The notes: generated by a model not told the origin, from the letters alone. A DNA stretch of 31,881 nucleotides from Candidatus Heimdallarchaeota archaeon (GCA_030668825.1 DAOVET010000024.1:1-31881), one strand, 5' to 3'. Counted from the stretch's first letter, positions 10,976 through 25,530 are shown. Made by a program: numbers and translations.

Positions 10976-11836
10976 ATGAAATTCAGAATGAATCGAAGAG
11001 CATTATCTCCAATAGTATCAGTTGTATTAATGTTTGCACTAATAACTGCTGCAATAGGGATTTCTCTTGTTTACATGATGCCCAGCATTAGTCAGTTCAA
11101 AGATAAAAGCTACAATAATAGTAGTAACCTGTATTTCATAGCTCTAGATGCCACTATACAAGATCTAATTCAAAATCTTCCTCCTGCAAGTTCAGACTTC
11201 CTATATGTACAAGAAGAAGGAACTATACATGTAGTTGAAGATTGGGCTTTTACATTCATTCTGAAAGATATTTTAGGAGCTCAAAATAGTTTGGTTTTAC
11301 AAGATAATATTACGAGAATCATTCATCGTAGTACAGCTGTAGGAGATTACAGTGAAGGAGAACATAGATATATAGTTGGTCCTCAAAATCAAGACTATCT
11401 GTTTCTCAATGGAAGTAGTACAGTCTACAACGACATAGCAGTTGTAAATACTTCAAGAGCTGTATACGAACCTGCATTTCTAGAATTAGCACTCTATTAT
11501 AGATATACTCTATCTACCGAATATGTGGTTTCAGGAATTGAGGAAATCTACTACATGGACATTATTAATGTGAAGTTTGTTCAAGATGATTCTGTTTCAT
11601 TATTTAGCGAAACTCAGAAATATGTTAATATTCAACTAACCTATGCAGGAACAGAAACACAACATCTAGGGGAGATTGAATATAGTAATGATATGCAAGG
11701 TGAAATAACCTTGATAAACCAATATAGATATCAACTAAAGGAGTATCCTATATATTTCCCAGCAAATCCAAGTTATTTAGCACATAAGATTGTCGCAAAT
11801 CTAATTACTATAATAATAAATGTATCACTAAGTTAA
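10976..11836 (+). CDS. Archaeal type IV pilin-like protein with class III signal peptide
   Basis: MKFRMNRRA|LSPIVSVVLMFALITAAIG; beta-rich body with N-glycosylation sequons. Confidence 0.85.
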   Translation: MKFRMNRRALSPIVSVVLMFALITAAIGISLVYMMPSISQFKDKSYNNSSNLYFIALDATIQDLIQNLPPASSDFLYVQEEGTIHVVEDWAFTFILKDILGAQNSLVLQDNITRIIHRSTAVGDYSEGEHRYIVGPQNQDYLFLNGSSTVYNDIAVVNTSRAVYEPAFLELALYYRYTLSTEYVVSGIEEIYYMDIINVKFVQDDSVSLFSETQKYVNIQLTYAGTETQHLGEIEYSNDMQGEITLINQYRYQLKEYPIYFPANPSYLAHKIVANLITIIINVSLS

Positions 11837-11846
11837 GGAGAGTTTC

Positions 11847-12311
11847 ATGCCAAGCGAATATATCATGTACCTATCTATTCTTCTTGTTGGAACACTTGCT
11901 ATAGCAGGTATAGCAGTTACAATGGTAGCTATAAATAATACAATGGAAGAAACAGCTATTAAAACGAATATGGAAAACATATTGCAAAATATGGCAGAAA
12001 CGATTCACAATCTATTAAACGAAGGTCAGAATCAGATTAACCTAGGAGCCATTTCTATAAACATGCAACGACCTTTAACGCTACCTCAAGAAATTCAAAA
12101 TGAAGCATATGAAATAGAGGTTGTATCTTCAGAGAATACTTACTCACTTAAAGCAACTGTAATAGAAAATGAGGATATTTTTGTGACTGTATCCTTGTTT
12201 ATTGATCCGGGTGTTTTAACTATATCTGGGACAATATCAAGCTTGAATTCATCACCAACAATTATCTACGTGTATGATGGAGTAGATATCAGTATATCTC
12301 TAATTGATTAG
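11847..12311 (+). CDS. Minor pilin-like protein (N-terminal hydrophobic helix, no basic leader)
   Basis: SEYIMYLSILLVGTLAIAG N-terminal helix and a LTLPQEIQNEAYEI motif typical of archaeal minor pilins; AAGGAG RBS; lies between the pilin and the ATPase. Confidence 0.7.
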   Translation: MPSEYIMYLSILLVGTLAIAGIAVTMVAINNTMEETAIKTNMENILQNMAETIHNLLNEGQNQINLGAISINMQRPLTLPQEIQNEAYEIEVVSSENTYSLKATVIENEDIFVTVSLFIDPGVLTISGTISSLNSSPTIIYVYDGVDISISLID

Positions 12312-12347
12312 CTTTTCTTGTTATTTCATATATTTTTTACCTAATAT

Positions 12348-12365
12348 GAAAAATAACTTTAAAAA
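12348..12365 (+). promoter_or_regulatory. BRE/TATA box of the ATPase gene
   Basis: GAAAAATAAC-TTTAAAAA ending about 22 nt before ATG 12388, consistent with a leaderless transcript. Confidence 0.4.
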
Positions 12366-12387
12366 GAGTAGTATATATAATTAATTC

Positions 12388-13923
12388 ATGCAAGATGATA
12401 CTGGTGAAGCCTTTGTTGATACAGCAGCAGTTCCAATTCTTGAAGAGACATATCCAGTAAGCCCTCCATTCTCTTATGTTTTGATACAAACTGATCCTAC
12501 CACCAAGCGTACACAATATATGATAGTAGAAATTCCTCTTGATAGCAAGGAAACTGCTATTTATAACAAAATATTCTCTATTATGGTAGATGAATTGGAC
12601 GTTGATTTTACTGTATTGAAATCAACTGAAAAGGCTGAAGAATTTTTGAAGAAGAAAATAGTTGATATCATTAAACGTTATCGTATTTCGTTGAATGAAT
12701 CACAATTTGAGAAGATTATGTACTACCTTACACGAGATTTAATTGGATATGGGAAGATTCAGCCCTTTATGCTTGATCCTAACATAGAAGATATTTCTTG
12801 TGATGGAACTGGTATCCCAATTTATGTTTGGCATAGAAAATATGAATCTATTGCAACCAACATCTCATTTGATACAGATGAAGAGTTAGATAGTTTTATC
12901 ATAAAATTAGCTCAACGAGCAAACAGACATATAAGCATTGCAAATCCCCTGTTAGATGCATCTCTACCTGATGGAAGCAGAATACAACTAACCTATGGAA
13001 AAGAGGTAACTCAACGAGGATCCACATTTACTGCAAGAAAATTCAAAGCAGATCCTTTTACAATTACAGACTTAATTCTTTACAATACAATAGATCAAGA
13101 TATTGCAGCTTATTATTGGTTTACAATGGAACATAATATTAGTACAATGATTGCTGGTGGTACTGCAGCAGGAAAAACCACTTTGTTGAATACTATTGCT
13201 ATGATGATTAAACCTGATTTGAAGGTAGTTACAATTGAAGATACAGCAGAATTGAATTTAGCCCATGAAAACTGGATTCCAAGTGTTGTTCGTTCTGGTT
13301 TTGGAGAAACAACAGAAACGGGATACGGAAGAGGACAAATCTCGATGTTTGAATTAGTTCGTGCAGCAATGAGACAAAGACCAGATTATATTATTGTGGG
13401 TGAAATCAGAGGAGACGAAGCCTACGCGATGTTTCAAGCGATGAGTACAGGTCATAGGGGTTTAGGTACTATTCATGGTGATTCTGTGGAAGGGGTAATT
13501 CACAGATTAGAGAGCAAACCAATGAATATTCCAAGATCAATGATGAAATCATTAGATTTGATTCATGTTATAAGAAAAGTAAGATTACAATCCAAATTCG
13601 CACGTCGTACTCAATCAGTTACTGAATTGATAGGTTTAGATCCAGTTACTGAAGAAATTCTAACAAACAAACTCTATCAATGGAATCCAAAGGATGATAC
13701 ATTCATTTACTTCGGAAGAAGTTATGTATTAGAAAAAATCATGGAGAATACCGGAATAACTGAACAAGAAATCTTTGACGAACTCGAAAGAAGAAAAACC
13801 ATCTTGAGATGGATGGTCAAAAAGAGAATTCGTTACTTCGAAGATGTAGCTTCTGTTATCCAAGAATATAATTCTGACCCAGATAGAACTCTTGAAAAGG
13901 CAAGAAAGGGTCTCAAAGCATAA
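12388..13923 (+). CDS. Type II/IV secretion system ATPase (ArlI/FlaI-PilB-TadA family)
   Basis: DPNIEDISCDG, Walker A GGTAAGKTT, Asp box TIEDTAEL, Walker B RQRPDYIIVGEIRG, His box TGH..TIH. Confidence 0.95.
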   Translation: MQDDTGEAFVDTAAVPILEETYPVSPPFSYVLIQTDPTTKRTQYMIVEIPLDSKETAIYNKIFSIMVDELDVDFTVLKSTEKAEEFLKKKIVDIIKRYRISLNESQFEKIMYYLTRDLIGYGKIQPFMLDPNIEDISCDGTGIPIYVWHRKYESIATNISFDTDEELDSFIIKLAQRANRHISIANPLLDASLPDGSRIQLTYGKEVTQRGSTFTARKFKADPFTITDLILYNTIDQDIAAYYWFTMEHNISTMIAGGTAAGKTTLLNTIAMMIKPDLKVVTIEDTAELNLAHENWIPSVVRSGFGETTETGYGRGQISMFELVRAAMRQRPDYIIVGEIRGDEAYAMFQAMSTGHRGLGTIHGDSVEGVIHRLESKPMNIPRSMMKSLDLIHVIRKVRLQSKFARRTQSVTELIGLDPVTEEILTNKLYQWNPKDDTFIYFGRSYVLEKIMENTGITEQEIFDELERRKTILRWMVKKRIRYFEDVASVIQEYNSDPDRTLEKARKGLKA

Positions 13924-13971
13924 GAAGACTATATAGTCTTTTTTTATTTTATTTTTCATCAAATAAGTGTA

Positions 13972-13979
13972 TTTATATA
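13972..13979 (+). promoter_or_regulatory. TATA box of hsp20
   Basis: TTTATATA after a purine-rich stretch and after a T-rich terminator-like tract (13939-13956). Confidence 0.45.
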
Positions 13980-14022
13980 CAAAGATGTCTATTTTTTCTC
14001 AACGATTGGGTGCTGGTTTATC

Positions 14023-14649
14023 ATGAATCCAGAGGATAACGATAAGAAAAAGAAAAAGAAAACTCCTGATGATTATAAAAGTCCTTTTGATTTCTTTGGA
14101 AGCGATGAAATTGATATAAATAAAATCATGGAAGACTTCATTCCCTTTCTGAAAGGTTCTTCATTCGGGAAGATGATTGATGAAATGCTGAAGAATCTTA
14201 TGAATAACTTCGAGGGTGGACTTGATCCAGGTATGTTAGAAAATATGTCAAACAATCCTTTTGTTTATGGTTTCAAAATTGGAGTAGATGAAGATGGAAA
14301 ACCAAATTTCAATCAATTTGGAAATCTTAAACCCAAGGCGTATGGAGACATTGAAACTTCAGAGACTAGAGAACCTTTAATAGACGTTTTTAAGGAAAAA
14401 GATTGCGTAAGAGTTATTGCAGAGGTTCCAGGAATTAGTAAGGGAGACATAAGTTTGACAGGAACTGAAGAAACACTCAGAATCAGAGCTCATTCTGAAT
14501 CAAGAAAATACGAGAAGGCTGTAAGTCTTCCTACTCCTGTAGATATATCAACTGCCAAAGCAAAATACAAGAATGGAGTTTTGGAAGTTATCATTAAGAG
14601 AAAGAAAAACGTAAAGAAAGATAAAGGCCACAAAATAGATGTTGAATAG
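14023..14649 (+). CDS. hsp20: Archaeal small heat shock protein Hsp20
   Basis: PFVYGF..DGKP..FGN, REPLIDVF, VIAEVPG, AKAKYKNGVLEV, C-terminal IDVE (IxI/V). Confidence 0.93.
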   Translation: MNPEDNDKKKKKKTPDDYKSPFDFFGSDEIDINKIMEDFIPFLKGSSFGKMIDEMLKNLMNNFEGGLDPGMLENMSNNPFVYGFKIGVDEDGKPNFNQFGNLKPKAYGDIETSETREPLIDVFKEKDCVRVIAEVPGISKGDISLTGTEETLRIRAHSESRKYEKAVSLPTPVDISTAKAKYKNGVLEVIIKRKKNVKKDKGHKIDVE

Positions 14650-14665
14650 GTTCTTCTCCTTCCAC

Positions 14666-15346
14666 TTAAATTTCTAACCACAACCAGATATTATGAGGTA
14701 ACAATGCTGTTATCATTTGTCCTGCAGCTAAATCTGCTGAATATCTACCGTCACCCAAATTTGTTACAGAAGTACTAGGAGAGATAGCTACAATCCCATT
14801 GTTTAACATTGTTTTAACCCCATTTGCTTCTTTGTAAAGATAAACATAATTCAAATTACCAACTGTTCCAGATGCTTCCATGAAATATGTTGTATTAAGA
14901 TGAATTACACTTTCATAGAATAGGTCTAAACTGTTAATATGGATTGAAACCTCAACCTCAAAATGAACAAATACAGGATTATTAGATGTACTACTATTCG
15001 CAATAATTAGATTAACATCATCATAAGTTAAGATAGATGGAAGGTTGTGATCATCCAGATAAGCTTCGATTTGTTCCATTCCTTCATCCATTATGGTTAG
15101 AACATCATCCCGAGATGCCCCCAATGACAACTGAGATAAAGCAACATTTGATAAGTCATCTATTGCGTTGAGACTATTATCTAAATAATCAAACAATTGC
15201 TGCTGATTTGGTGCTGGATTAATGTATGGACTTTGTGTTATTTGGAATATAGTTGCAGATATAATAATGAGAAAAATGAGTATTGTAATAGACAAGAGCA
15301 AGAAAACCTGTCCTCGTTTGTTTTTAGTGAGAGATACTTTCTTCAT
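14666..15346 (-). CDS. Pilin-like protein with class III signal peptide
   Basis: MKKVSLTKNKRG|QVFLLLSITILIFLIIIS. Likely ATG 15346, 1 nt after the upstream stop, with an AGGTG RBS. Confidence 0.8.
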   Translation of the reverse strand: MKKVSLTKNKRGQVFLLLSITILIFLIIISATIFQITQSPYINPAPNQQQLFDYLDNSLNAIDDLSNVALSQLSLGASRDDVLTIMDEGMEQIEAYLDDHNLPSILTYDDVNLIIANSSTSNNPVFVHFEVEVSIHINSLDLFYESVIHLNTTYFMEASGTVGNLNYVYLYKEANGVKTMLNNGIVAISPSTSVTNLGDGRYSADLAAGQMITALLPHNIWLWLEI

Positions 15347-15347
15347 C

Positions 15348-15815
15348 TTAAACACCTTTTAACCATACTTTTAGATGAATGGTACATGGAATCAATTCGC
15401 CATTCACTTCTGAGATAAGATAATCAATACCTATAGCTTCAGTAGAAGGTGCAAGATGTTGATTTATCCAACTCCCTGATATTTCTAAGCTCGTAGCGAG
15501 GTTTTCATAATATAGATTAAATTCACCATTGTCGGGTAATGAGCCATAAATTGCTTGCTCAATAACTGTTTGATAGTAAGTAATGTTTGCGGTTTGACTA
15601 TTTAGAACGGAATAAATATAAGCATCAAGTATATTCAGATTATCCAATGATTTTAGAGTTGTATATACTTCCTCGTGGTAATTTGCTTCTATTGGTGGTT
15701 GTGTAGCAATTTGAACTTCATACAAAGCAGTTACCATGATTATCATAACAGATACAGCGATAAAGGCTTCTATGATGAAAAGTTGTGCTTTTCTATTCTT
15801 TGTTAGTTTTTTCAT
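15348..15815 (-). CDS. Pilin-like protein with class III signal peptide
   Basis: MKKLTKNRKA|QLFIIEAFIAVSVMIIMV; C-terminal LKVW strand. Confidence 0.82.
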   Translation of the reverse strand: MKKLTKNRKAQLFIIEAFIAVSVMIIMVTALYEVQIATQPPIEANYHEEVYTTLKSLDNLNILDAYIYSVLNSQTANITYYQTVIEQAIYGSLPDNGEFNLYYENLATSLEISGSWINQHLAPSTEAIGIDYLISEVNGELIPCTIHLKVWLKGV

Positions 15816-15819
15816 TGTA

Positions 15820-17010
15820 TCACCAGTACCAAATTTGACATTTTAGAAGTACATTTCTGATAGTAAACAGTTTAGTTTTTGAAATGTAAGTTTGTTGATC
15901 TTGGAAAGAGGAATGTGCGAATATTCCACCGTGAATGGAATTTTGAAACATGGGAACTCCAATATAACCTGCAGAATATGTTGATTCAGATCTCTCATTT
16001 ACTACAACAACAGCTAATCCATTAGTGGTTATCGAAATACCTGTTCCTGAATATATCTCGCCTTCAGCTGTTGTTTCTTGAGTTAAATTCTGTTTATGAT
16101 GGTCTACCCCTAAATCTGAAAAAGGAAACACAACAATTGCATGAGCCTCATCACTCAACACATTTCGTTCAACGGTTACATCTATTGCTGAACCAGGTGA
16201 GTTAGTATTTTCTTTAACAAAAGGTCGAAAATCAAAATCAACAAAGTAATACTCAAGACCACTACTTTCTCTAACCAATCTTTTAACAATATAATCTTGA
16301 AAAATCTCTCCAACTTGAGCAAATACAACTATTGTATAATAATCTGTTTCGGGAGCGGTTAATGTTGCTCTGAAGCTTATAGAACCAGAAATATCTTTGG
16401 TAGTTGTATAGTTTGAGACCACATTGTTATTATTATCAATCGCAAAAGCCCAAATTTCAGCGCCTTCTATTGGGGTTTGATATTCATTAACTTCACCATA
16501 AAGATTGATTACACCGAAAGCAGCAGTATAATCATTAATGGAAATTGAAATTGGAGAATATATACTGATAGCGAAATCTCGGATCATGTGGTATGCTACT
16601 TTCACATTCAGATAGTTTATTGTCCAATAGGAAGACAGATCACTAGTCAACCTATTTATTTTTGTAAAGTCAAGATCACCATTTGCTCCCATCAGACCCA
16701 GTCTAAAATCTGTTAAAGATACAGTAGCAATGGTACCCCAATTAGTTGGATTACCCTTAGAAGAGAAAATATTACTGTATAATTTGTTCAATTCTTGTTC
16801 TTGAGAATAGGTTTCCATCTGCACTAAAGAGGGAATTAATAAATTTGAAAGAACAAGAATTACCTGGCTGAAAGCTATCACGAAGATTAGAAGAGCTAAT
16901 GCAAAATCAACGCCTCTTATCTGAGCTTTCCTTCCCTTAAGGAATGCTTTCAAACCTTTCTTCTTATTTTTTTCTTTCAATTCTTTATTCTCCTTTATCT
17001 TCTGCATCAT
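15820..17010 (-). CDS. Large pilin-like/adhesin protein with class III signal peptide
   Basis: KGRKA|QIRGVDFALALLIFVIAF, GNPTNW..LGL motif, ends IWYW. Start uncertain: ATG 17010/17007, or TTG 16980 after GGAG. Confidence 0.78.
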   Translation of the reverse strand: MMQKIKENKELKEKNKKKGLKAFLKGRKAQIRGVDFALALLIFVIAFSQVILVLSNLLIPSLVQMETYSQEQELNKLYSNIFSSKGNPTNWGTIATVSLTDFRLGLMGANGDLDFTKINRLTSDLSSYWTINYLNVKVAYHMIRDFAISIYSPISISINDYTAAFGVINLYGEVNEYQTPIEGAEIWAFAIDNNNNVVSNYTTTKDISGSISFRATLTAPETDYYTIVVFAQVGEIFQDYIVKRLVRESSGLEYYFVDFDFRPFVKENTNSPGSAIDVTVERNVLSDEAHAIVVFPFSDLGVDHHKQNLTQETTAEGEIYSGTGISITTNGLAVVVVNERSESTYSAGYIGVPMFQNSIHGGIFAHSSFQDQQTYISKTKLFTIRNVLLKCQIWYW

Positions 17011-17413
17011 CGCCCAGTATTCTTTCTTCAAGAAGAGATTTAATCTCTGCAAGAGTAGCTTCTAACTCGACTAACTCCATACCTTTGTCAAGAAGATTAG
17101 AGGCTCTTTCTTGCATATCTTCTGCTTTTTGGATTCTATCTGAAACCAAATTATCGATTTGGTCCTTAATTTGAATTAAATCTTCTTTGGTACTTATAGA
17201 CTGTCCAAGTTGTTCTATTTTGTCTTCCAAAGGACCGAGATCAACTGAAACAGAACCAACAATTCCTTCAGAATCTCCATCTGCTGAAGGAATAACTCCT
17301 TTTTCTAGAGTACCCATAATTCTGACTACATTAAAACTGATTTGATTAGTTAATCTCTGTAGCTCATCAACTTGTTCCTTAATATTTTTAACATCGTCTT
17401 CAAGTTTTCCCAT
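16985..17413 (-). CDS. Soluble acidic coiled-coil protein within the pilus operon
   Basis: Heptad-patterned helices joined by a G/S/D linker; no transmembrane segment; tightly packed in the operon. Confidence 0.75.
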   Translation of the reverse strand: MGKLEDDVKNIKEQVDELQRLTNQISFNVVRIMGTLEKGVIPSADGDSEGIVGSVSVDLGPLEDKIEQLGQSISTKEDLIQIKDQIDNLVSDRIQKAEDMQERASNLLDKGMELVELEATLAEIKSLLEERILGDDAEDKGE

Positions 17414-17433
17414 AGTTTCATCACATCCGATTA

Positions 17434-18363
17434 CTATATTCCAATTGATATCAATGGATTATCTGGTTGAATTAATATCTTGAATGCAAACCAACCTAAG
17501 AACATAAGTACCACTGAATGCATTAATCCTGCTTTTACGGACATTTTAGACATTTTTCCTGCCACTAATCCCGAGAAGAACCCTTGAACTGCTAGCATGT
17601 GTAAGAATAGAACTTCAAGTACATCCAAATCTATATTCACTAAAAACATTCCAGCTGTTTGTTCTGCTGAAATATTTGCTGAGAAGAATGGAATAAAGAA
17701 TGTTTGAAATAGAATCACTACAACCAGGATGAAAATTATAAAAGAAGCATAAACAATCCAGACATATGGCTTCATTGCGCCCTCTCTTTCCTTTTTGAGA
17801 TTTAGGAGAGTCTGTACATATTTTTCAGTTGCTTCAAATATTTCTTCAAGATTCCCTCCAGATCTTTCAGCTTCGAGAATCAATAAAGTAGCTCTTTGTG
17901 CTAAAGGAGTATTAATTGACTTTTGAAAGTCAGTCATAGCTTGATTAAAAGGTATCCCCCAAGAAATTTTGCTGGACATTTTCCTTAATTCAGGTGTTAG
18001 AGGACCATATTGACGCTTTGCAGATTCTTTAATTGCCCTTGGTAGAGCCATACCTGTACGCTGAGCATTGCTAATTTCCCTCAGAAGATATGGCAAGTTT
18101 TCATCAATTCTTGATTGTCTTCTTTCCTCTCTATAAATAATCAGAAATGTGGGAATTCCTATTACCACAATAATTGCTAAAATTACGAAATCATTAATAT
18201 CGAGAATTGTGATGAAATCATCACCAGTTCGTTGAACAAGAACATCTATTATTCCTAATGTAACTAGAATTACACCAGCAACTCCAGCAATTACCCAGTA
18301 AACCAAATCTTGTGTGATTTGAAACTTTTTTACCTCAACTTCAACTTCGTCACTTATTGCCAT
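17434..18363 (-). CDS. Type II secretion system F (TadC/ArlJ-like) membrane platform protein
   Basis: IDENLPYLLREIS..RTGMAL, YGPLTPEL, AERSGGNL, GFFSGLVAGKM; several TM helices. Confidence 0.9.
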   Translation of the reverse strand: MAISDEVEVEVKKFQITQDLVYWVIAGVAGVILVTLGIIDVLVQRTGDDFITILDINDFVILAIIVVIGIPTFLIIYREERRQSRIDENLPYLLREISNAQRTGMALPRAIKESAKRQYGPLTPELRKMSSKISWGIPFNQAMTDFQKSINTPLAQRATLLILEAERSGGNLEEIFEATEKYVQTLLNLKKEREGAMKPYVWIVYASFIIFILVVVILFQTFFIPFFSANISAEQTAGMFLVNIDLDVLEVLFLHMLAVQGFFSGLVAGKMSKMSVKAGLMHSVVLMFLGWFAFKILIQPDNPLISIGI

Positions 18364-18371
18364 TTTTTCAC

Positions 18372-19235
18372 CTACATCTCCGGTTGTTGTGCATCAATTA
18401 GCACAATAATCACTAATTCTGAAACTGGTATAATTATATAAACCATCACTGCCATTAGCAGATTCGCATTGCCTGCGGAACCGCCTAACATAGACATCAT
18501 CGCCAAAATTACTATGAAGAATATTGGAGCTACTACTCCCATAACCATGAACAATTCAGCCATTATACCTAAGGTATCAATGAAATTCTTCTCACTTTGA
18601 ACTTTATCATTCATTAAAGTTTCAGAGGAAACTTCCAAGTATCGTTGTAACTCTCCTCCTGATGTAAAAGTCCCTACAATTCCTTCCAAAAAGCTTGAGT
18701 ATTTCGCTGAAGGAGATCTAAGAGAAGCTTCTCCAAGAGCATGGACTATATCATAACCAAAAACTTGAATGTCTCTGGATATTTTCCTTGCATCCTTAAC
18801 AATTGCTTCTCCAATCTTTTCTTTAGTGAGTGATAGAAATATTCGGTCTGGAGTAACGCCTGCAGATGCCATAGCTGTCATATAACCCGCTGTAGTTGGT
18901 AAAGCTGCTTCCAATTTTCTTTTTCTATCCCCAACCAAATAACTGGGATATACCCATGTAAAAACAAACATACTAATTAGGACTAAAATTGGTAAAACAA
19001 TCACAAGTATTACTGATAATTCAGCAACAACAATCTTTACTGCTATAAGAACAACAAGAGAAACAATAGAAAGAATAATAGCCCAAAAAATTCTAACACT
19101 GAGATACATTCTCACACTCTTATCTACCCCTGCTTTTCGCAAAGTTAGTTTTAATCCATCAAATTCTGCAAGATATGGTTCTATAAACCTTCCAATATAA
19201 GAATAAGCTATAGATTCTATTATTTTTGAACTCAT
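18372..19235 (-). CDS. Type II secretion system F (TadB/C-like) membrane platform protein
   Basis: LRKAG, LEAALP...YMTAMASAGV, FGYDIVHAL, SPSAKYSSFLEGI..SGGEL; TM helices. Confidence 0.9.
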   Translation of the reverse strand: MSSKIIESIAYSYIGRFIEPYLAEFDGLKLTLRKAGVDKSVRMYLSVRIFWAIILSIVSLVVLIAVKIVVAELSVILVIVLPILVLISMFVFTWVYPSYLVGDRKRKLEAALPTTAGYMTAMASAGVTPDRIFLSLTKEKIGEAIVKDARKISRDIQVFGYDIVHALGEASLRSPSAKYSSFLEGIVGTFTSGGELQRYLEVSSETLMNDKVQSEKNFIDTLGIMAELFMVMGVVAPIFFIVILAMMSMLGGSAGNANLLMAVMVYIIIPVSELVIIVLIDAQQPEM

Positions 19236-19509
19236 TTTGTTAACCTCAAGGCTTTTTGTAATATTTTTGTTCTACTACACTATATTGAATAAGGACTATT
19301 TAACATTTATTCGTATATTGAATCCGTATATATTTCTTTTGAAACTTTTTCTTGTTGCAATTATGAAAAAAACTGACTATTTTTCAGTTTCACAATTTGA
19401 AATAGCCGAAAACATAGAAATCAACTGAAGAAAGATAGAATCTTAACGAATCGCTTGAAACAAACACTAACTATAAAAATGATAACACCTTGTTTTTACT
19501 CGAATCTAA

Positions 19510-20226
19510 ATGACTCTATATATTATACAGTCTACTGGAGAAATGACAGAGTGTACCAATAAAGAAGTCGCTTTAGCTTCTTCAAATGTTCTAGTAGTTA
19601 TATCTCATAATCAGAAGAAAATTTACACATGGATAGGGAGTCAATCTTCTCCTCATTCCAAGTTCGCTTGTGCAAGAGAAACAGCTAGATTAAGAATGGA
19701 ACTAGGATATAAAATCGTTAATTTAGAAGAATCTTCTACCAACAATGATTTCTTAGAAGCTATAGACGAGGCAATAAGTGCGCCCTCTGGAGGATCTGCA
19801 ACAAAACCTAGACCAAAAACAGCTCCTGTAAAAAAGGAAACTCCTAAAGCAAAACCAAAAACAGCTCCAAAAAAAGCTCCTGTAAAAAAGGAAACTCCTA
19901 AAGCAAAGCCAAAAAAAGTTACTCAACCAAAGGAGAAAAAGGAAGCTGAACCTAGAAGGTATGAAGCTAAGGCTGTGAAAACTAAAATAATTGATATAGA
20001 GCATATTTTCAAACAATTACAAGTTCTTCCTCCAATGGAGGATAGTATTCGGGATTATATTCTAGTTGGGGATTCATTATTTATTGCTCCTGAAAATATT
20101 GATCAAAGTGATTCTGAATCAAAAGTACAACTTCCTGATGGATCTTTTGTTGCAGATGATTATGTACCAAGATTGTTTCTAGAAAACGGTAAAATTATTG
20201 CTGTTGAACTTTGGAGACAAACTTAA
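19510..20226 (+). CDS. Gelsolin-like domain + Lys/Pro-rich linker + uncharacterised C-terminal beta domain
   Basis: LASSNVLVV..KKIYTWIGSQSSPHSKF..A...LEE....DFLEAI matches the gelsolin repeat pattern (l.s.d.fil...iyvW.G..s...ek..a...e.e...F). Confidence 0.75.
   Translation: MTLYIIQSTGEMTECTNKEVALASSNVLVVISHNQKKIYTWIGSQSSPHSKFACARETARLRMELGYKIVNLEESSTNNDFLEAIDEAISAPSGGSATKPRPKTAPVKKETPKAKPKTAPKKAPVKKETPKAKPKKVTQPKEKKEAEPRRYEAKAVKTKIIDIEHIFKQLQVLPPMEDSIRDYILVGDSLFIAPENIDQSDSESKVQLPDGSFVADDYVPRLFLENGKIIAVELWRQT
19821..19915 (+). repeat. 41-bp direct repeat (period 54 nt) encoding APVKKETPKAKPK twice
   Basis: 19821-19861 and 19875-19915 match at 40 of 41 positions. Confidence 0.9.
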
Positions 20227-20759
20227 TATCCCTGTTTCTCCATTACTTTCTTTGCAATTATAGTATAAATGTCATTTACTCCTTCTCCAAGTTTAGCTGA
20301 GGATTCTAATACTGTGTAACCTTTTGATGACCATTTCTTATCCAGTTCTTCAAAATCTACAGTTCTTTCTTCCTCTAAATCAGTTTTATTTCCCACGATA
20401 ATAATTGGGATGTTGGGGCATTTTTCCTCAACTTCATTGATCCACTTTTCTATGTGATCATAAGATTCTTTTCTAGTTATGTCAAAAACAACAACAGCTC
20501 CATGAGCTCCAGTATAGTATCGTTTACGAAGTGTAACTAGCTTTTCTTGGCCGACTGTATCAAAGAGTACTAAACGCAATGTTGTATCTTCATCATATGT
20601 AATCATCTTACTATAGAAATCTACTCCTAAAGTAGGGAGATAGGAAGATGTAAAACGGTTTTGAGTATATCGAACTGCTAAACTTGTTTTACCAACCGCA
20701 TAATCCCCTGCATTGATTACCTTTATGATGTAAGTAACATTGGGAGTTAAGGTGGTCAT
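20223..20759 (-). CDS. Rab-like small GTPase (Ras superfamily)
   Basis: G1 GDYAVGKT, G2 PTLGVDF, G3 DTVGQE, YYTGA, VVFDIT, G4 NKTD, G5 SAK. No C-terminal prenylation cysteines. Confidence 0.93.
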   Translation of the reverse strand: MTTLTPNVTYIIKVINAGDYAVGKTSLAVRYTQNRFTSSYLPTLGVDFYSKMITYDEDTTLRLVLFDTVGQEKLVTLRKRYYTGAHGAVVVFDITRKESYDHIEKWINEVEEKCPNIPIIIVGNKTDLEEERTVDFEELDKKWSSKGYTVLESSAKLGEGVNDIYTIIAKKVMEKQGY

Positions 20760-20896
20760 TCAAATAAATTTAGAAAAGCAAACTATATGAGGTTTGTTAA
20801 ATATGTAATTGTCCATAATACATTTTTGGATAATTAATAAGCTTAAGCTACATTGGTAGGTTAACGTTTTTATAGTTTTTAAACAAAAAAAAGAAG

Positions 20897-21607
20897 ATGA
20901 CTGAGGTAGATCTAGATTTCAGTAATCTTACTGTAATCATTCCCACATTAAATGAAGAAAAATCTCTTGGAGAACTTCTAGAATTAATCGAGAAGAATGC
21001 TCCAAATTGCAAAGTAACTGTTGCTGATGATGGATCAATAGATAAAACAAAAGAAATTACAGAAACTTTTGAAGGAAAACTAGAGACATTCTTTCTAGAT
21101 AGAAAGGATGAGGAAGTGCATGGATTAACTGTTAGTGTTTTGGATGCTATTCTATTATGTTCAACAACCTATTTTCTGGTGATGGATGGAGATTTACAAC
21201 ACCCTCCAAAGGTTATTCCAGGTTTCCTTAAACTTCTTCAAGAAGACTATGATTTAGTTGCGGGGAACAGAACCAAGATTATGGGAAGCTGGTCACTGTA
21301 TAGAAAACTAATGTCCATTGTAGCAAGATTACTTGGAAGCTTAGCACTCTTATTTAGACGCAAAAATAGAGTAAAGGATGTGATGACGGGGCTATTTGCA
21401 TCTAGAACACAAATATGGAAAGGATTTCTACATGAAAAGAAAAAGAAGTTCATTTTAGAAGGATATAAAGTGCTCTTTGATTTTTTAAAATCATACCCAT
21501 CAAAATTAAAGGTGGGTCATGTAGACTATACTTTCGGCACAAGACATTCTGGAGAATCAAAAATTACAAAGAAAGTGATATGGCTATACTTTAAATCACT
21601 TTTTTAA
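20897..21607 (+). CDS. GT2 glycosyltransferase, dolichol-phosphate mannose synthase (DPM1)-like
   Basis: IIPTLNE, DDGSIDKT, MDGDLQHPP, DVMTG, GYKVL, FGTRHSGESK. Confidence 0.88.
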   Translation: MTEVDLDFSNLTVIIPTLNEEKSLGELLELIEKNAPNCKVTVADDGSIDKTKEITETFEGKLETFFLDRKDEEVHGLTVSVLDAILLCSTTYFLVMDGDLQHPPKVIPGFLKLLQEDYDLVAGNRTKIMGSWSLYRKLMSIVARLLGSLALLFRRKNRVKDVMTGLFASRTQIWKGFLHEKKKKFILEGYKVLFDFLKSYPSKLKVGHVDYTFGTRHSGESKITKKVIWLYFKSLF

Positions 21608-21611
21608 TATG

Positions 21612-22310
21612 TTACACCCCTGGCAAAAGATCTTTGTGGTCGTAAACTTCTTGCAGAAATTCCTGCATTAATTCAGGATTTTTAATGCCACTGTGTCTTT
21701 CAACACCAGAGGATACATCTACTGCATTGGGTTTTATGGTAGAGATTATTTCCCCGACATTGGCAGTTGTTAGTCTTCCTCCAACAACAAGAGGTTTTGT
21801 TATTGCTTTCTGAATATTAACTATTATTTCAACCAGCTTAGTTTTTTTTTCCTTATTTCCCCAGCTTTGTCCTAATGGGGCGTTAACATTTATGATTTGC
21901 ACATAGGGATCTAGTGTTTGTGCTGCTTTAACTGGATCTGGATCAAGTATGTTTGACTCATATGTCTCTCTATCTAAAAATATCGAGCCAATAATTGGTA
22001 TTGTAGCAGTTGATTGAACCGCAATGAGATTATTAACATCGTTAAAGAAATCTCCATTTACTTGTATTATGTTAGGGTGACAAATATCTAGAGTTTCAAA
22101 AATATCGTCAAGAGAAGAAGGAACAATTTCTGCAATAGTTGTACATTTTTCAATGTTTGTGAATATTCTACGAGCGTCAAATTTACTTACAGACCTGATT
22201 TCATCTATATTGATATCATCAATTATTGCACCTATAGCAAAATAAGATGATACGTCGACTGATGAAGCTGTGTCATTGTTAGTTATACCAGAGATTTTTG
22301 CAATCCACAC
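21612..22310 (-). CDS. TrpF (phosphoribosylanthranilate isomerase)-fold protein, catalytically divergent
   Basis: KISGIT, RSVS, IIQVNG, VVGGRLTTANV, AVDVSSGVE..GIK; GTG start with GAGGA RBS. Cys and Asp catalytic positions appear substituted. Confidence 0.75.
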   Translation of the reverse strand: MWIAKISGITNNDTASSVDVSSYFAIGAIIDDINIDEIRSVSKFDARRIFTNIEKCTTIAEIVPSSLDDIFETLDICHPNIIQVNGDFFNDVNNLIAVQSTATIPIIGSIFLDRETYESNILDPDPVKAAQTLDPYVQIINVNAPLGQSWGNKEKKTKLVEIIVNIQKAITKPLVVGGRLTTANVGEIISTIKPNAVDVSSGVERHSGIKNPELMQEFLQEVYDHKDLLPGV

Positions 22311-22377
22311 TTTCAGTTCCTCAAGTGTGTAATTATGGCTGTGTTTTTAATATTTTCCTCTAAATGAAATAACTAGA

Positions 22378-22427
22378 TGATATCTGGAATTTATCTGTGA
22401 CTTGACCCGTATAATTTCCGGATATTA
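22378..22427. promoter_or_regulatory. Imperfect inverted repeat/hairpin in divergent intergenic region
   Basis: ATATCTGGAATTTAT (22380-22394) pairs with ATAATTTCCGGATAT (22411-22425): 13/15 Watson-Crick plus one G-U, 16-nt loop. Confidence 0.5.
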
Positions 22428-22797: not shown

Positions 22798-22889
22798 GAT
22801 TAATCTGTTTTGAATTCTCTATCAACTTTGTTTGAGTTTTTATTATTAACAATCAAGTATTTAAAGTGAGAATTTTAGTGAAATATAAC

Positions 22890-24608
22890 ATGAGCAATGC
22901 TGAAGCTATTATCTACAAAGAAGCCATTGTTAATGCCTATAAATACGGCTCAGCCGAGAAAAAAATTGTTTTAAGAAAAATAATGGCAAATTATCCTGAT
23001 CTCAGAAGCAAGATGAAGGAAATTCAACTACTTTTAGATAAAACCATCGCAGAAGTTAATGAAATTCCCACGGATAGGTTGAGAGAGATTGTAGAAAAGA
23101 AGTATCCAGATAGCATAATAGAAGAGAAAAAAGAGAGAGATTATCTTCCTGAAGTAGTCAATGCTATCAAAGGTGAGGTAACAGTTAGATATCCTCCTGA
23201 ACCATCTAAGCACCCTCATGTGGGACAAATGCTGTCCTTCTGCATTAATCATTTAATAGCTGAAAGATATGAAGGTAAGAGAGTTTTACGTTTCGATGAT
23301 ACTAATCCAGAGAAAGTTCAGACAGAATTCTATGATAGTTTTAGAGAAGTCATTCAATGGATGAATTTGAAAATTGAAGATGAAGTTCTAGCATCTAATC
23401 ATATGGAATTATATTATGAAAAAGCGATAGAATTAATCAAAAAAAATGAAGCGTTTATTTGTACATGCGATAGAGAGACAATGGCAAAATTAAGAACAGA
23501 GGAAAAGCCTTGTTCTTGTAATCTAAACAATTCAACAGAACAAAATCTGGAATTATTCGAGAAAATACTTGAAGGACATTTTAAATCAGGAGAAGCTGTG
23601 GTTAGATTAAGGGGAGACATGTCCTCAAAGAATGCTGTCCTGAGGGATCCTGTATTATTAAGAATATCTAATCACATTCATTGTATTCAAGGAGATAAGT
23701 ATAATCTTTGGCCTATGTATGATTTTGAATCACCAATAATGGAAGATTTTACTGGTGTTACTCATATCTTGCGAAGTATTGAATTTGGTAAAATGAGAGA
23801 AGAACTTCAAAGTTTAATATCAACAAAACTCGGTTTGAAAATACCTAATTTTCTGGAGTATGCAAGATTTAATGTTATCGGGTCACCAACTCAAGGAAGA
23901 ATTATCAGAGATTTAGTTGAACAGAAAATAGTTACAGGATGGGATGATTATAGATTAGTTACATATCAAGCTCTCAAAAGAAGAGGAATTCAACCAGAAA
24001 CCTTCATGGAGATGATAAAAAGATTAGGAGCTACAAAATCGGCTACAAATATAGACTGGTCGTTAATTTCTTCTATCAATCGAAAAATAATCGAACCAAA
24101 TTCAAAGCATTTCTTCTTTGTAGATGACCCAGTAACTATACATCTAACCAACCCAAAACCACAAACAGTAGAAATTCACTTACATCCAAAAAATAAGGAT
24201 TTGGGAACGAGAAAGATATATGTTGAAGATATCCTCTACCTAAGCAGATTGGACTTGAATATTCTGCATATTGATGCTATTGTTAGAATGAAGGATCTTT
24301 ACAACATAAAAATCACAGAAAAAGTGTCAAATTCAGAATTTAAAGCGGAGATTTGTAGTGATGAATTAATGGTTGAAGTTCCACGTGTTCAATGGGTTTC
24401 AGAACCAGTTTCTGTTGAGATTATAAAGCCAGAAATGTTATATTTAAATAACCGTATAAACAAAGATAGCTTGAAACATATCTATGGATATGGGGAAAAA
24501 GAATTGCAAAATCTGAATATTGGTGAGATTATTCAGCTTGAGCGCTTTGGGTATACAAAAGTTAATAAGATAACAGATAAAGTGAAGATGAATTATATTC
24601 ATGGTTGA
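22890..24608 (+). CDS. gltX: Archaeal-type glutamyl-tRNA synthetase (divergent signature motifs)
   Basis: VRYPPEPSKHPHVGQ, LRFDDTNP, CTC..CSC Zn site, RDPVLLR, WPMYDF, VTHILRS, GWDDYRL, RRGI, QLERFGY. Likely ATG 22890. Confidence 0.92.
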   Translation: MSNAEAIIYKEAIVNAYKYGSAEKKIVLRKIMANYPDLRSKMKEIQLLLDKTIAEVNEIPTDRLREIVEKKYPDSIIEEKKERDYLPEVVNAIKGEVTVRYPPEPSKHPHVGQMLSFCINHLIAERYEGKRVLRFDDTNPEKVQTEFYDSFREVIQWMNLKIEDEVLASNHMELYYEKAIELIKKNEAFICTCDRETMAKLRTEEKPCSCNLNNSTEQNLELFEKILEGHFKSGEAVVRLRGDMSSKNAVLRDPVLLRISNHIHCIQGDKYNLWPMYDFESPIMEDFTGVTHILRSIEFGKMREELQSLISTKLGLKIPNFLEYARFNVIGSPTQGRIIRDLVEQKIVTGWDDYRLVTYQALKRRGIQPETFMEMIKRLGATKSATNIDWSLISSINRKIIEPNSKHFFFVDDPVTIHLTNPKPQTVEIHLHPKNKDLGTRKIYVEDILYLSRLDLNILHIDAIVRMKDLYNIKITEKVSNSEFKAEICSDELMVEVPRVQWVSEPVSVEIIKPEMLYLNNRINKDSLKHIYGYGEKELQNLNIGEIIQLERFGYTKVNKITDKVKMNYIHG

Positions 24609-25530
24609 TAAAATGCCTGTCGAAATTGGATTAGTATTATTCTTGGTTTTCATTGCTATTTCATTAATAGTGGCAGCGAGAGCCGCTGTAAAAAGCAAAA
24701 AGAAGAAAAGTGTTCCAAAGAAAAGATATAAGCCATATCAACCTCAAGCACAGCAATCAGGGGTTAGTCCACCTAGTCAACAAGAATATTCCTACTCAGC
24801 TAGACAAAGTACTAATATTGAAGAGATTCCAAAATCTAGAGCTGCGTATGCAAGTGCCGATGAATACTTTAGAGCTGGAATGTATGATAGGGCAAAGGAG
24901 GAATATCTAAAAACAGGTAGAGTTTTTGGAGCTGCAAAATCAATTGCAGCTAAGGGAAGGGAATTTGTTCCAGATTCAATTGAAATTATTTCTAGATATG
25001 CCCCAGAAAGAGAAGAAGAAATGGTTAGAAACCTATCCCGCTATTTTTATGATAGTGGTGAGACTGAGATTTCAGCATATATTCTTTTTGAAAAGGGATT
25101 AGAAGAAGAAGCTGATGCAGTTTTAGCAACTATCGGAAAGTCAGTTAGTGATATAACTCCTAGTGGTGTTGTAGAAGTAAGTACAATAGATCAACCAATT
25201 GTTATTCAGGAAGTTGATGACCAAAGAAGCTTAGAAGAGTTAGAGGAAATCGCTGCAGAAGTGAAGGAAGAGGAAAAAGAAATAGAAGTTGAAGCTAAAC
25301 CTTTTCCCAAGTCAAAACTTCCTGCTACTCAGCCTATGAAAGTTGCAACTTCTGATTTAGATGAAAGATGCAGTGTTTGTATGTCCCCAATTAAAGCAGG
25401 AGAGAGTTTTATTAGATGTCCTTTCTGTGAAATTCCATCACATTATGCTCATATAGTAGAATGGATTAAAGTAAAACCTCAATGCCCAAACTGCAGAAAG
25501 AAACTTGTTTCAAGGATGTTTCAAGCATAG
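24601..25530 (+). CDS. Membrane-anchored protein with helical repeats and C-terminal RING finger (putative E3 ligase)
   Basis: N-terminal TM followed by KKKK; Q/P/S-rich linker; helical repeats; acidic linker; CSVC-x12-CPFC-x4-H-x2-H-IVEW-x6-CPNC. Confidence 0.8.
   Translation: MVDKMPVEIGLVLFLVFIAISLIVAARAAVKSKKKKSVPKKRYKPYQPQAQQSGVSPPSQQEYSYSARQSTNIEEIPKSRAAYASADEYFRAGMYDRAKEEYLKTGRVFGAAKSIAAKGREFVPDSIEIISRYAPEREEEMVRNLSRYFYDSGETEISAYILFEKGLEEEADAVLATIGKSVSDITPSGVVEVSTIDQPIVIQEVDDQRSLEELEEIAAEVKEEEKEIEVEAKPFPKSKLPATQPMKVATSDLDERCSVCMSPIKAGESFIRCPFCEIPSHYAHIVEWIKVKPQCPNCRKKLVSRMFQA

Follow-up and report, generated by a model that had tools for sequence, protein, structure and literature searches.

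Do the surface filaments of an Asgard archaeon share their control with its actin cytoskeleton and its small GTPases? The question is raised by a contig of a Candidatus Heimdallarchaeota archaeon (GCA_030668825.1, DAOVET010000024.1:1-31881) in which, between positions 17,434 and 21,607, the end of a pilus-like locus is followed by a gelsolin-domain gene (P0001, here GelX), a Rab-like small GTPase gene (P0002) and a glycosyltransferase family 2 gene (GT2, P0003). The whole stretch of DNA that was analyzed, called the window below, is the entire 31,881-base contig (G000:C135) of a genome of 2.76 Mb. A reading made from the sequence alone (the sequence-only reading) had suggested that pilus, actin and GTPase genes are co-regulated at this place. 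From that suggestion, the adjacency of GelX and Rab has stood, being found in 47 of 51 genomes, and the pilus part has not. The stretch consists of three unrelated units (the end of the pilus platform, the GelX-Rab pair and GT2) which are neighbors through family-level synteny only. Among these, the GelX-Rab pair is probably a GTPase-coupled actin regulator and the only conserved functional candidate.

A GelX-Rab gene pair conserved in five families

The surroundings of GelX were compared over 51 genomes, drawn from the 82 others of the class and representing seven families (f1 to f7, with the window in f1). The loci chosen were those that best matched P0001 or profile A1, the latter being itself built from Rab-linked members, a caveat for the counts that follow, and the 28 window proteins and the profiles were mapped onto the fetched loci. 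A Rab-like gene is the direct neighbor of GelX in 47 of the 51 genomes and in five of the seven families. Two further loci (G000:C91 and G069:C356), each holding the second family member of its own genome and neither having a Rab neighbor, are kept out of this count.

The orientation of the pair varies between families. In f1, the genes are adjacent and convergent in all 21 loci, 17 of which show the exact 4-bp TTAA overlap, and a single locus (L040, genome G007) carries an insertion that leaves about 1.1 kb between the two genes, the distance being 113 bp in the sister genome of the genus. In three families the pair is co-directional and operon-like, with gaps that do not exceed about 140 bp: f7 (7/7 adjacent, 50-139 bp), f5 (11/11, with open reading frame gaps of at most 22 bp or overlaps that perhaps stem from over-long gene calls) and f6 (1/1). 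All seven f4 loci, from four genera, have the genes adjacent, with three convergent, two co-directional and two divergent arrangements. Adjacency was found in none of the three f3 loci and not in the single f2 locus.

A Ras-family neighbor is not in itself rare, since the genome of the window has 34 Ras-family matches in 2.76 Mb and we estimate that any one gene would have such a neighbor by chance in a few per cent of cases. A single adjacency thus says little and it is the conservation that counts. As a control, GelX and Rab are the only ones among the 28 query proteins with counterparts in the mapped f7 and f5 loci, and the remaining flanks are unrelated between loci according to a Pfam scan of 76 of the 115 neighbors (the others belonged to two near-duplicate loci or were already matched to window proteins). 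The pair probably dates at least to the common ancestor of the five families, and its ancestral state was probably a co-transcribed unit with GelX followed by Rab, the adjacency later being kept through inversions.

In the window itself, GelX and Rab are convergent and their stop codons overlap by 4 bp in TTAA (20223-20226), which leaves separate terminators no room; the two transcripts probably overlap at their 3' ends. GT2 is divergent from Rab over 137 bp. Because the strands are opposed, GelX, Rab and GT2 are not one transcription unit here. The sequence-only reading had listed a Rab-like GTPase following the gelsolin gene; it was right about the identity of the product (Pfam Ras, E 7.8e-48) and imprecise about the arrangement, as the gene runs towards GelX on the opposite strand.

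The gelsolin-domain protein

The protein P0001 is predicted to combine a single N-terminal gelsolin-homology (GH) domain, a long linker and a conserved C-terminal domain (X), i.e., the GelX/1DGelX architecture. In an AlphaFold2 (AF2) model built from 20 orthologues, the GH domain occupies residues 1-90 (19510-19779) with a predicted local distance difference test score (pLDDT) above 92, followed by a Lys/Pro-rich, disordered linker (about residues 91-160, pLDDT 42-54) and by X (about residues 160-238, pLDDT 84-92 in the full model). Pfam PF00626 gives 16.8 bits (E 0.0062) for this protein, under the cut-off of 21, and the proposal of a gelsolin-domain gene was nevertheless confirmed by other means. 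With phmmer, residues 4-83 match the Thorarchaeota ProGel chain 7c2f_B (E 3.2e-4), and the same ProGel/actin structure is the best Foldseek match of the modeled domain (E 3.2e-6, template modeling score 0.85 on the target, root mean square deviation 1.5 A over 83 columns). Foldseek returned 45 matches at E<=0.001, and the 50 rows listed are chains of gelsolin, villin, adseverin, fragmin or Asgard gelsolin (2DGel). Moreover, relatives with the same X domain do pass the Pfam Gelsolin cut-off (P0199 with 24.7 bits and P0142 with 23.0 bits). These comparisons point to a gelsolin fold in the N-terminal domain. The genome of the window also encodes two actins (E 6e-134 and 4e-129).

X, modeled alone, is predicted to form one helix and four strands (pLDDT 82, predicted template modeling score 0.73) and is conserved over 20 sequences, with five invariant residues (G211, F213, Y218, R221 and E233). 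Structural comparison gave no match to the Protein Data Bank (PDB) by Foldseek at E<=0.001, nothing above 0.80 in the Atlas, and, with VIA-align in its wide mode, a best Z of 4.4 to dCache/PAS/GAF-like sensors, which is within background. The X-domain sequence profile run against the PDB retrieved only spurious leucine-rich-repeat matches to an LPDGxF motif. Two candidate origins gained no support from these comparisons: a second, degenerate gelsolin half (hhalign probability 0.6% against the protein's own gelsolin domain) and a half-Roadblock (0.2% against the Roadblock neighbors described below).

The family is widespread within the phylum, its profile having matches in 395 of 400 genomes. 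A search with P0001 as a single sequence returned 15 close relatives, all from Heimdallarchaeota metagenome-assembled genomes (MAGs) or named as "uncultured archaeon", and one spurious bacterial match. In an exhaustive comparison with 1.84 billion representative proteins, the X profile had 160 matches at E<=0.001, in which any other recognizable domain is always gelsolin; proteins with X-domain matches include some publicly named after MAGs of Thorarchaeota (e.g., P0078), Hodarchaeota and Heimdallarchaeota, each of them annotated as "hypothetical protein". Fusions were looked for among longer proteins with P0001, where none was found, and with the X profile, where the best 120 of 177 matches are all 216-317 aa long; 11 X matches of odd length or domain position contained gelsolin only or nothing. 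The unrooted GelX tree has one supported split, separating a short type (f1, f2, f3, f4 and f7) from everything else, including the f5 Rab-linked genes and the second copy in the genome of the window. The window protein thus belongs to a shorter, class-specific branch, of about 210-270 aa versus about 280-320 aa.

The Rab-like GTPase

P0002 has its nearest solved relatives in Rab14 (E 2.1e-35) and Rab1A, with E values from 2e-35 to 4e-35, and the best 60 PDB matches listed are Rab/Ypt proteins. Its G motifs are complete (GDYAVGKTS, DTVGQE, GNKTD and SSAK), and all of them, the catalytic Gln included, are kept in 17 of 17 Rab partners of GelX (alignment A2). The C-terminus (...VMEKQGY) has no cysteine and thus no prenylation motif, for which reason we call the protein Rab-like and not a bona fide Rab. 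Among the f7 partners (L045, L047, L049 and L070), a Lys/Glu-rich C-terminal extension ends in a conserved EF(S/N)FWQKA; this tail is absent from the other families and could be a membrane or partner anchor replacing prenylation.

Phylogenetically, the 17 sampled Rab partners and four paralogues from the genome of the window make up one set with good support (95/93), and a single clade of partners is neither shown nor rejected (approximately unbiased test, p-AU 0.41). Compared with the 34 Ras-family genes in the genome of the window, the f4 and f5 partners match P0002 best. In f5 (L058, L059, L060 and L109-L116) and f6 (L118), a third co-directional gene follows Rab, encoding a protein of 250-271 aa that resembles Arf/EF-Tu-type GTPases only weakly (Pfam Arf, E about 1e-5); no counterpart lies beside the window pair.

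Roadblock genes beside GelX in other Asgard classes

Outside the class, 20 GelX loci from eight families were sampled, and 31 of their 79 listed neighbors were scanned with Pfam. Rab is the direct neighbor of GelX in none of these 20 loci. In 17 of them, a Roadblock/LC7 gene (121-143 aa) lies directly downstream of GelX and co-directional with it, 16 of the products being over the Pfam cut-off and one a weak match. The two f14 loci and the f28 locus have no such gene beside GelX, its place being taken in the latter by a TnpB-like fragment. The genome of the window has Roadblock homologues elsewhere, none of them beside either of its GelX genes.

Roadblock is the partner fold of MglA-type and Rag GTPases (PMC10933270; here and below, papers are cited for passages of their main text). 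Judged from gene order, the Roadblock linkage appears to be a second link of GelX to the small-GTPase machinery, separate from that to Rab. Taking both linkages together, in most of the phylum gene order connects the GelX family either with a GTPase or with the fold of a GTPase partner. In three loci (L082 and L083 of f27, L095 of f26), a protein of 557-612 aa with an N-terminal Ras-family domain is encoded two genes upstream of GelX-Roadblock, with an NAD(P)H-hydrate repair gene in between; in L095 the Ras-domain protein is fused to an M20 peptidase domain.

Proposed mechanism and alternative explanations

We regard it as likely that GelX and the Rab-like protein act in one pathway. That they bind each other directly is a good deal less certain, with a chance somewhat below even, and only tentatively do we propose that GelX is a dedicated, nucleotide-state-dependent partner of the adjacent Rab-like GTPase, and that in other Asgard classes GelX reaches a GTPase through the downstream Roadblock protein. 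In this mechanism, the N-terminal gelsolin domain would bind the archaeon's own actin, in the manner of the Thorarchaeota proteins ProGel and 1DGelX, for which actin binding and severing have been characterized in vitro. The Rab-like protein would act as a complete GTP/GDP switch and, in one nucleotide state, would bind GelX, most likely via the conserved X domain. This binding would recruit GelX to a defined place in the cell, or toggle its severing, capping or nucleating activity there, the direction of the contact (effector or regulator) being part of the proposal; in other classes, the product of the downstream Roadblock gene would link GelX to a GTPase encoded elsewhere.

Several observations weigh against this mechanism. 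Gene adjacency is the sole link between GelX and the Rab-like protein, and throughout f1, the family of the window, they run towards each other and so are not co-transcribed. The pair is split in f3, with the best Rab candidates lying elsewhere without GelX, and is absent in f2. On the GelX side, the gelsolin domain is divergent (29% identity to ProGel), making actin binding a prediction; X has no recognizable GTPase-binding fold, given the best Z of 4.4 and the 0.2% hhalign probability to Roadblock; and neither GelX nor X was found fused to a GTPase or Roadblock domain in any of the searches, including that of the 1.84 billion representatives. In the unrooted tree, the main split separates the f5 GelX proteins from those of f1, f4 and f7, a topology that fits either a single ancient pairing or two recruitments made separately. 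Similarly, for the f7 partners another paralogue equals or slightly beats P0002 and, since the Rab tree gives no single clade, different Rabs may have been recruited independently.

Some of these observations would be expected if the adjacency had been conserved without any contact between the products, either because both are needed under the same conditions or as the slowly decaying relic of an old operon. The convergent or divergent orientation in f1 and in part of f4, the lost linkage in f2 and in f3 (where both genes are retained) and the lack of fusion proteins in the searches all fit such a scenario, as does the report that in strain MK-D1 small GTPase genes generally lie outside the operons of their regulators (PMC10933270). 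Against it, the adjacency has outlasted several inversions and the complete turnover of other neighbors in five families, and the sister GelX branch is tied to Roadblock in 17 of 20 loci, which is hard to explain as a relic. We thus hold conservation without contact to be unlikely, if the best of the alternatives.

Less probable still is that GelX acts as a GTPase-activating protein (GAP)- or guanine nucleotide exchange factor-like regulator of the Rab-like GTPase, in the way in which the gelsolin-like domain of Sec23 acts on Sar1. The gelsolin domain of Sec23 supplies a key GAP residue, and Asgard Sec23-like proteins are described as being without that domain (PMC11914678); the invariant arginine R221 and glutamate E233 of X, as well as the weakly Arf-like third gene of f5 and f6, could be read in the same sense. 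However, the 50 Foldseek matches listed are all of the gelsolin family, many of them solved with actin, with no Sec23 among them, and the gelsolin domain itself has no conserved arginine (position 56 being R, K or S). Moreover, the partner is Rab-like and not Sar/Arf-like, and the nearest characterized type of relative, Thor 1DGelX, acts on actin.

The pilus genes are neighbors by synteny

The remaining alternative is the one the locus first brought to mind, namely that the pilus machine, GelX and Rab are co-regulated from a shared upstream region and act together, as in MglA-type pilus placement. In Myxococcus, MglA controls pilus polarity. Some of the observations behind the idea were accurate: the tadB/C and gelsolin genes are indeed divergent over 274 bp, and GT2, described as DPM1-like, has P. 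furiosus dolichol-phosphate mannose synthase (DPMS) as its best solved relative (5mlz_A, E 1.5e-27, residues 10-235). In addition, the block of GT2, GelX-Rab and TadB is intact in all five genera of f1, even where the other flanks have moved. The expected conservation of a tadC-gelsolin-Rab neighborhood beyond close relatives was not found: genes with a T2SSF domain adjoin the pair in 20 of the 21 f1 loci (in the 21st, the contig stops about 300 bp past the gelsolin gene) versus none of the 30 loci of the six families f2 to f7, within the fetched stretches. GT2 likewise adjoins the pair in f1 only.

The reverse comparison, starting from seven pilus loci in five genomes of f4, f5 and f7, found neither GelX nor Rab within about 8 kb of the pilus genes in any of them (in G043 the contig stops at TadB, which places the upstream side outside this comparison). 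These loci retain TadB/C, the four downstream genes w10-w13, the ATPase and the pilin-like genes together, and GelX and Rab lie on different contigs or, in the single-contig genome, more than 1 Mb away. In f7 (G075 and G081; L105-L108), TadC-like and w10-w13 are on one contig and the ATPase, TadB-like and pilin-like genes on another.

Within f1, the region from the ribonucleotide reductase gene to w27, beyond GluRS (~30 kb), is collinear in three of the five genera with its housekeeping genes included, and because of this the adjacency of pilus and pair is to be seen as ordinary synteny. In the other two genera (g4 and g5; L039, L040 and L044), GelX-Rab is inverted as a block, such that Rab faces TadB and GelX faces GT2. 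The gelsolin/TadB "shared upstream region" is therefore lost there and not conserved even within the family. An alignment of ten genomes of the genus resolves the gap into two conserved, A/T-rich and promoter-like blocks, about 140 bp apart, with a center that varies in length and sequence. In the TadB-proximal block, the minus strand carries TATA-like elements, and the gelsolin-proximal block contains TATAAAAA at 19472-19479, about 35 bp upstream of the ATG. On this pattern, the gap would hold two promoters and not one shared control region.

As for co-expression, the contigs of three runs labeled or guessed to be RNA (X18-X20) are short and cover pilus genes only, with none on 19348-22400, and one RNA-library contig covers the TadC/TadB-like genes at 95-99% identity. 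Such contigs cannot show absence, level or strand, and are thus uninformative on this point. With the linkage confined to f1, with pilus loci elsewhere lacking both genes and with the pair inverted next to them in two genera, we consider co-regulation from the 274-bp region, like any other involvement of the pilus with GelX-Rab, to be highly improbable.

Relation to known systems

The closest published counterparts of P0001 are Thor 1DGelX (Akil et al. 2020, PMC7444086), for which binding to rabbit actin (Kd 7.7 uM) and calcium-independent severing are reported, and B35_GelX of L. ossiferum, described as GH, "extensive linker" and X (preprint 10.1101/2025.11.30.690169). These share with the window protein an N-terminal GH domain, a long linker and a C-terminal X, and, considering this architecture and the breadth of the family, the X domain of the window protein is presumably that of Thor 1DGelX. 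The window protein differs in belonging to the shorter, class-specific branch, and X, predicted as a coiled coil in 2020 (PMC7444086), is here modeled as a small alpha+beta domain (AF2, pLDDT 82).

On the GTPase side, the G domain of P0002 is nearest to Rab1/Rab14 and also matches the Thorarchaeota Rab (Thor-Rab, PDB 7ezb, E 3.9e-30), with which it shares the absence of a prenylation cysteine. A small Ras-superfamily GTPase encoded beside its partner is also seen in MglA/MglB and other pairs of a GTPase with Roadblock (bacteria, archaea, Rag/Ragulator); in the window, however, the neighbor of the GTPase is a gelsolin-domain protein and not Roadblock, X has no profile similarity to Roadblock, and the analogy to MglA and pili failed the linkage test. 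Asgard genomes carry small GTPases by the dozen, and for MK-D1, Tran et al. (2024, PMC10933270) report that the partners of these are difficult to deduce from the arrangement of genes, in contrast to the Rab-like lineage of the window with its conserved neighbor. Sec23/Sar1 of COPII offers a likeness in that a gelsolin-fold domain acts directly on a small GTPase (PMC11914678), with the difference that Sec23 is a five-domain coat protein, whereas GelX is free-standing, nearest to actin-binding gelsolins and next to a Rab-like gene. The main-text passages of the literature searched (including PMC7444086, PMC13716822, PMC10933270, PMC11914678, PMC8813620, PMC12962969 and the preprint 10.1101/2025.11.30.690169) contain no mention of a GelX-Rab or GelX-Roadblock gene linkage.

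The pair is relevant to the question of whether the actin cytoskeleton came under the control of GTPases before eukaryotes arose, a question made more pressing by the reports that Asgard cells crawl with actin-filled protrusions and that Lokiactin co-precipitates with five gelsolins and an ARF GTPase (PMC13716822). If the proposed mechanism is true, GelX-Rab would be the first prokaryotic example of a small GTPase matched with an actin regulator, and Asgard archaea would have had switch-controlled actin remodeling, following the logic of Rho, Rac or Arf, before there were eukaryotes. The Rab-like lineage and its conserved neighbor of the actin-regulator type make a concrete pair for expression, and GelX with Roadblock is a second one.

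Other features of the window

Table 1. Features of the window, with positions counted from its first base
Feature	Position	Strand	Evidence or remarks
Ribonucleotide reductase large subunit, 1179 aa	7095-10634	-	Pfam
DUF7289 and DUF7266 pilin-like genes	in pilus-like locus 10976-19235	+	Pfam
FlaI-like T2SSE ATPase	12388-13923	+	Pfam T2SSE E 2.4e-38; NCBIfam FlaI 423 bits, below cut-off of 550
HSP20/alpha-crystallin gene	14023-14649	+	Pfam
Four unannotated genes, w10-w13	14666-17413	-	operon-like run after TadB-like, TadC-like
TadC-like platform gene, single T2SSF	17434-18363	-	Pfam T2SSF E 1.8e-16
TadB-like platform gene, single T2SSF	18372-19235	-	Pfam T2SSF E 5e-9
Divergent intergenic region	19236-19509	.	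274 bp; two conserved blocks
TadB-proximal block	about 19271-19313		alignment, 10 genomes of genus
Gelsolin-proximal block	about 19454-19483		alignment, 10 genomes of genus
GelX-type gelsolin-domain gene (P0001, 238 aa)	19510-20226	+	phmmer, AF2, Foldseek
Rab-like small GTPase (P0002, 178 aa)	20223-20759	-	Pfam Ras E 7.8e-48, 162.5 bits
DPMS-like GT2 (P0003, 236 aa)	20897-21607	+	Pfam Glycos_transf_2 E 5.5e-24
GluRS, then 309-aa protein	22866-25530	+	8-bp overlap

The pilus-like locus contains an archaeal type IV pilus-like set in Pfam and NCBIfam, with a FlaI/T2SSE ATPase, a FlaJ/T2SSF platform and prepilin-like subunits. The two T2SSF matches of the genome are both on the window contig. They correspond to different parts of the known platform proteins, the TadB-like gene resembling the N-terminal half of ArlJ/FlaJ/UpsF (ArlJ/FlaJ positions 9-249 of 555) and the TadC-like gene the C-terminal half (ArlJ/FlaJ positions 195-451 of 465; UpsF 275-467 of 484), all below the NCBIfam cut-offs. 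Going by these two halves, the genes appear to encode one platform split in two. The N-termini of w10, w11 and w12, read by eye, have KRGQ or RKAQ followed by a hydrophobic stretch, which we take to resemble class III (prepilin) signal peptides. The locus is thus like the archaeal type IV pili (Ups, archaellum and bindosome) in its FlaI-like ATPase, its FlaJ/UpsF-like platform and the prepilin-type N-termini of its pilin-like genes, and differs from them in the split platform, for which bacterial Tad, with TadB and TadC, is an analogue. Because all NCBIfam scores are below the equivalog cut-offs, the pilus is assigned to none of the named systems. The HSP20 gene, lying between the ATPase and the minus-strand pilin-like genes, is kept in all f1 loci that reach there and was not seen in the f4, f5 and f7 pilus loci.

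P0003 is shorter than the solved archaeal DPMS (236 versus 374 aa), and the NCBIfam equivalogs are all far below cut-off. It is best described as a GT2 with a DPMS-like catalytic domain.

Further away from the pair, the ribonucleotide reductase contains an intein with an HNH endonuclease domain, and C-terminal TSCPD and zinc ribbon domains. At its C-terminus, the 309-aa protein encoded after GluRS weakly resembles a RING finger (zf-RING_2, E 1.6e-4, under the cut-off); this gene and GluRS are kept together throughout f1, and the RING gene is also found near GelX in one f4 locus (L054).

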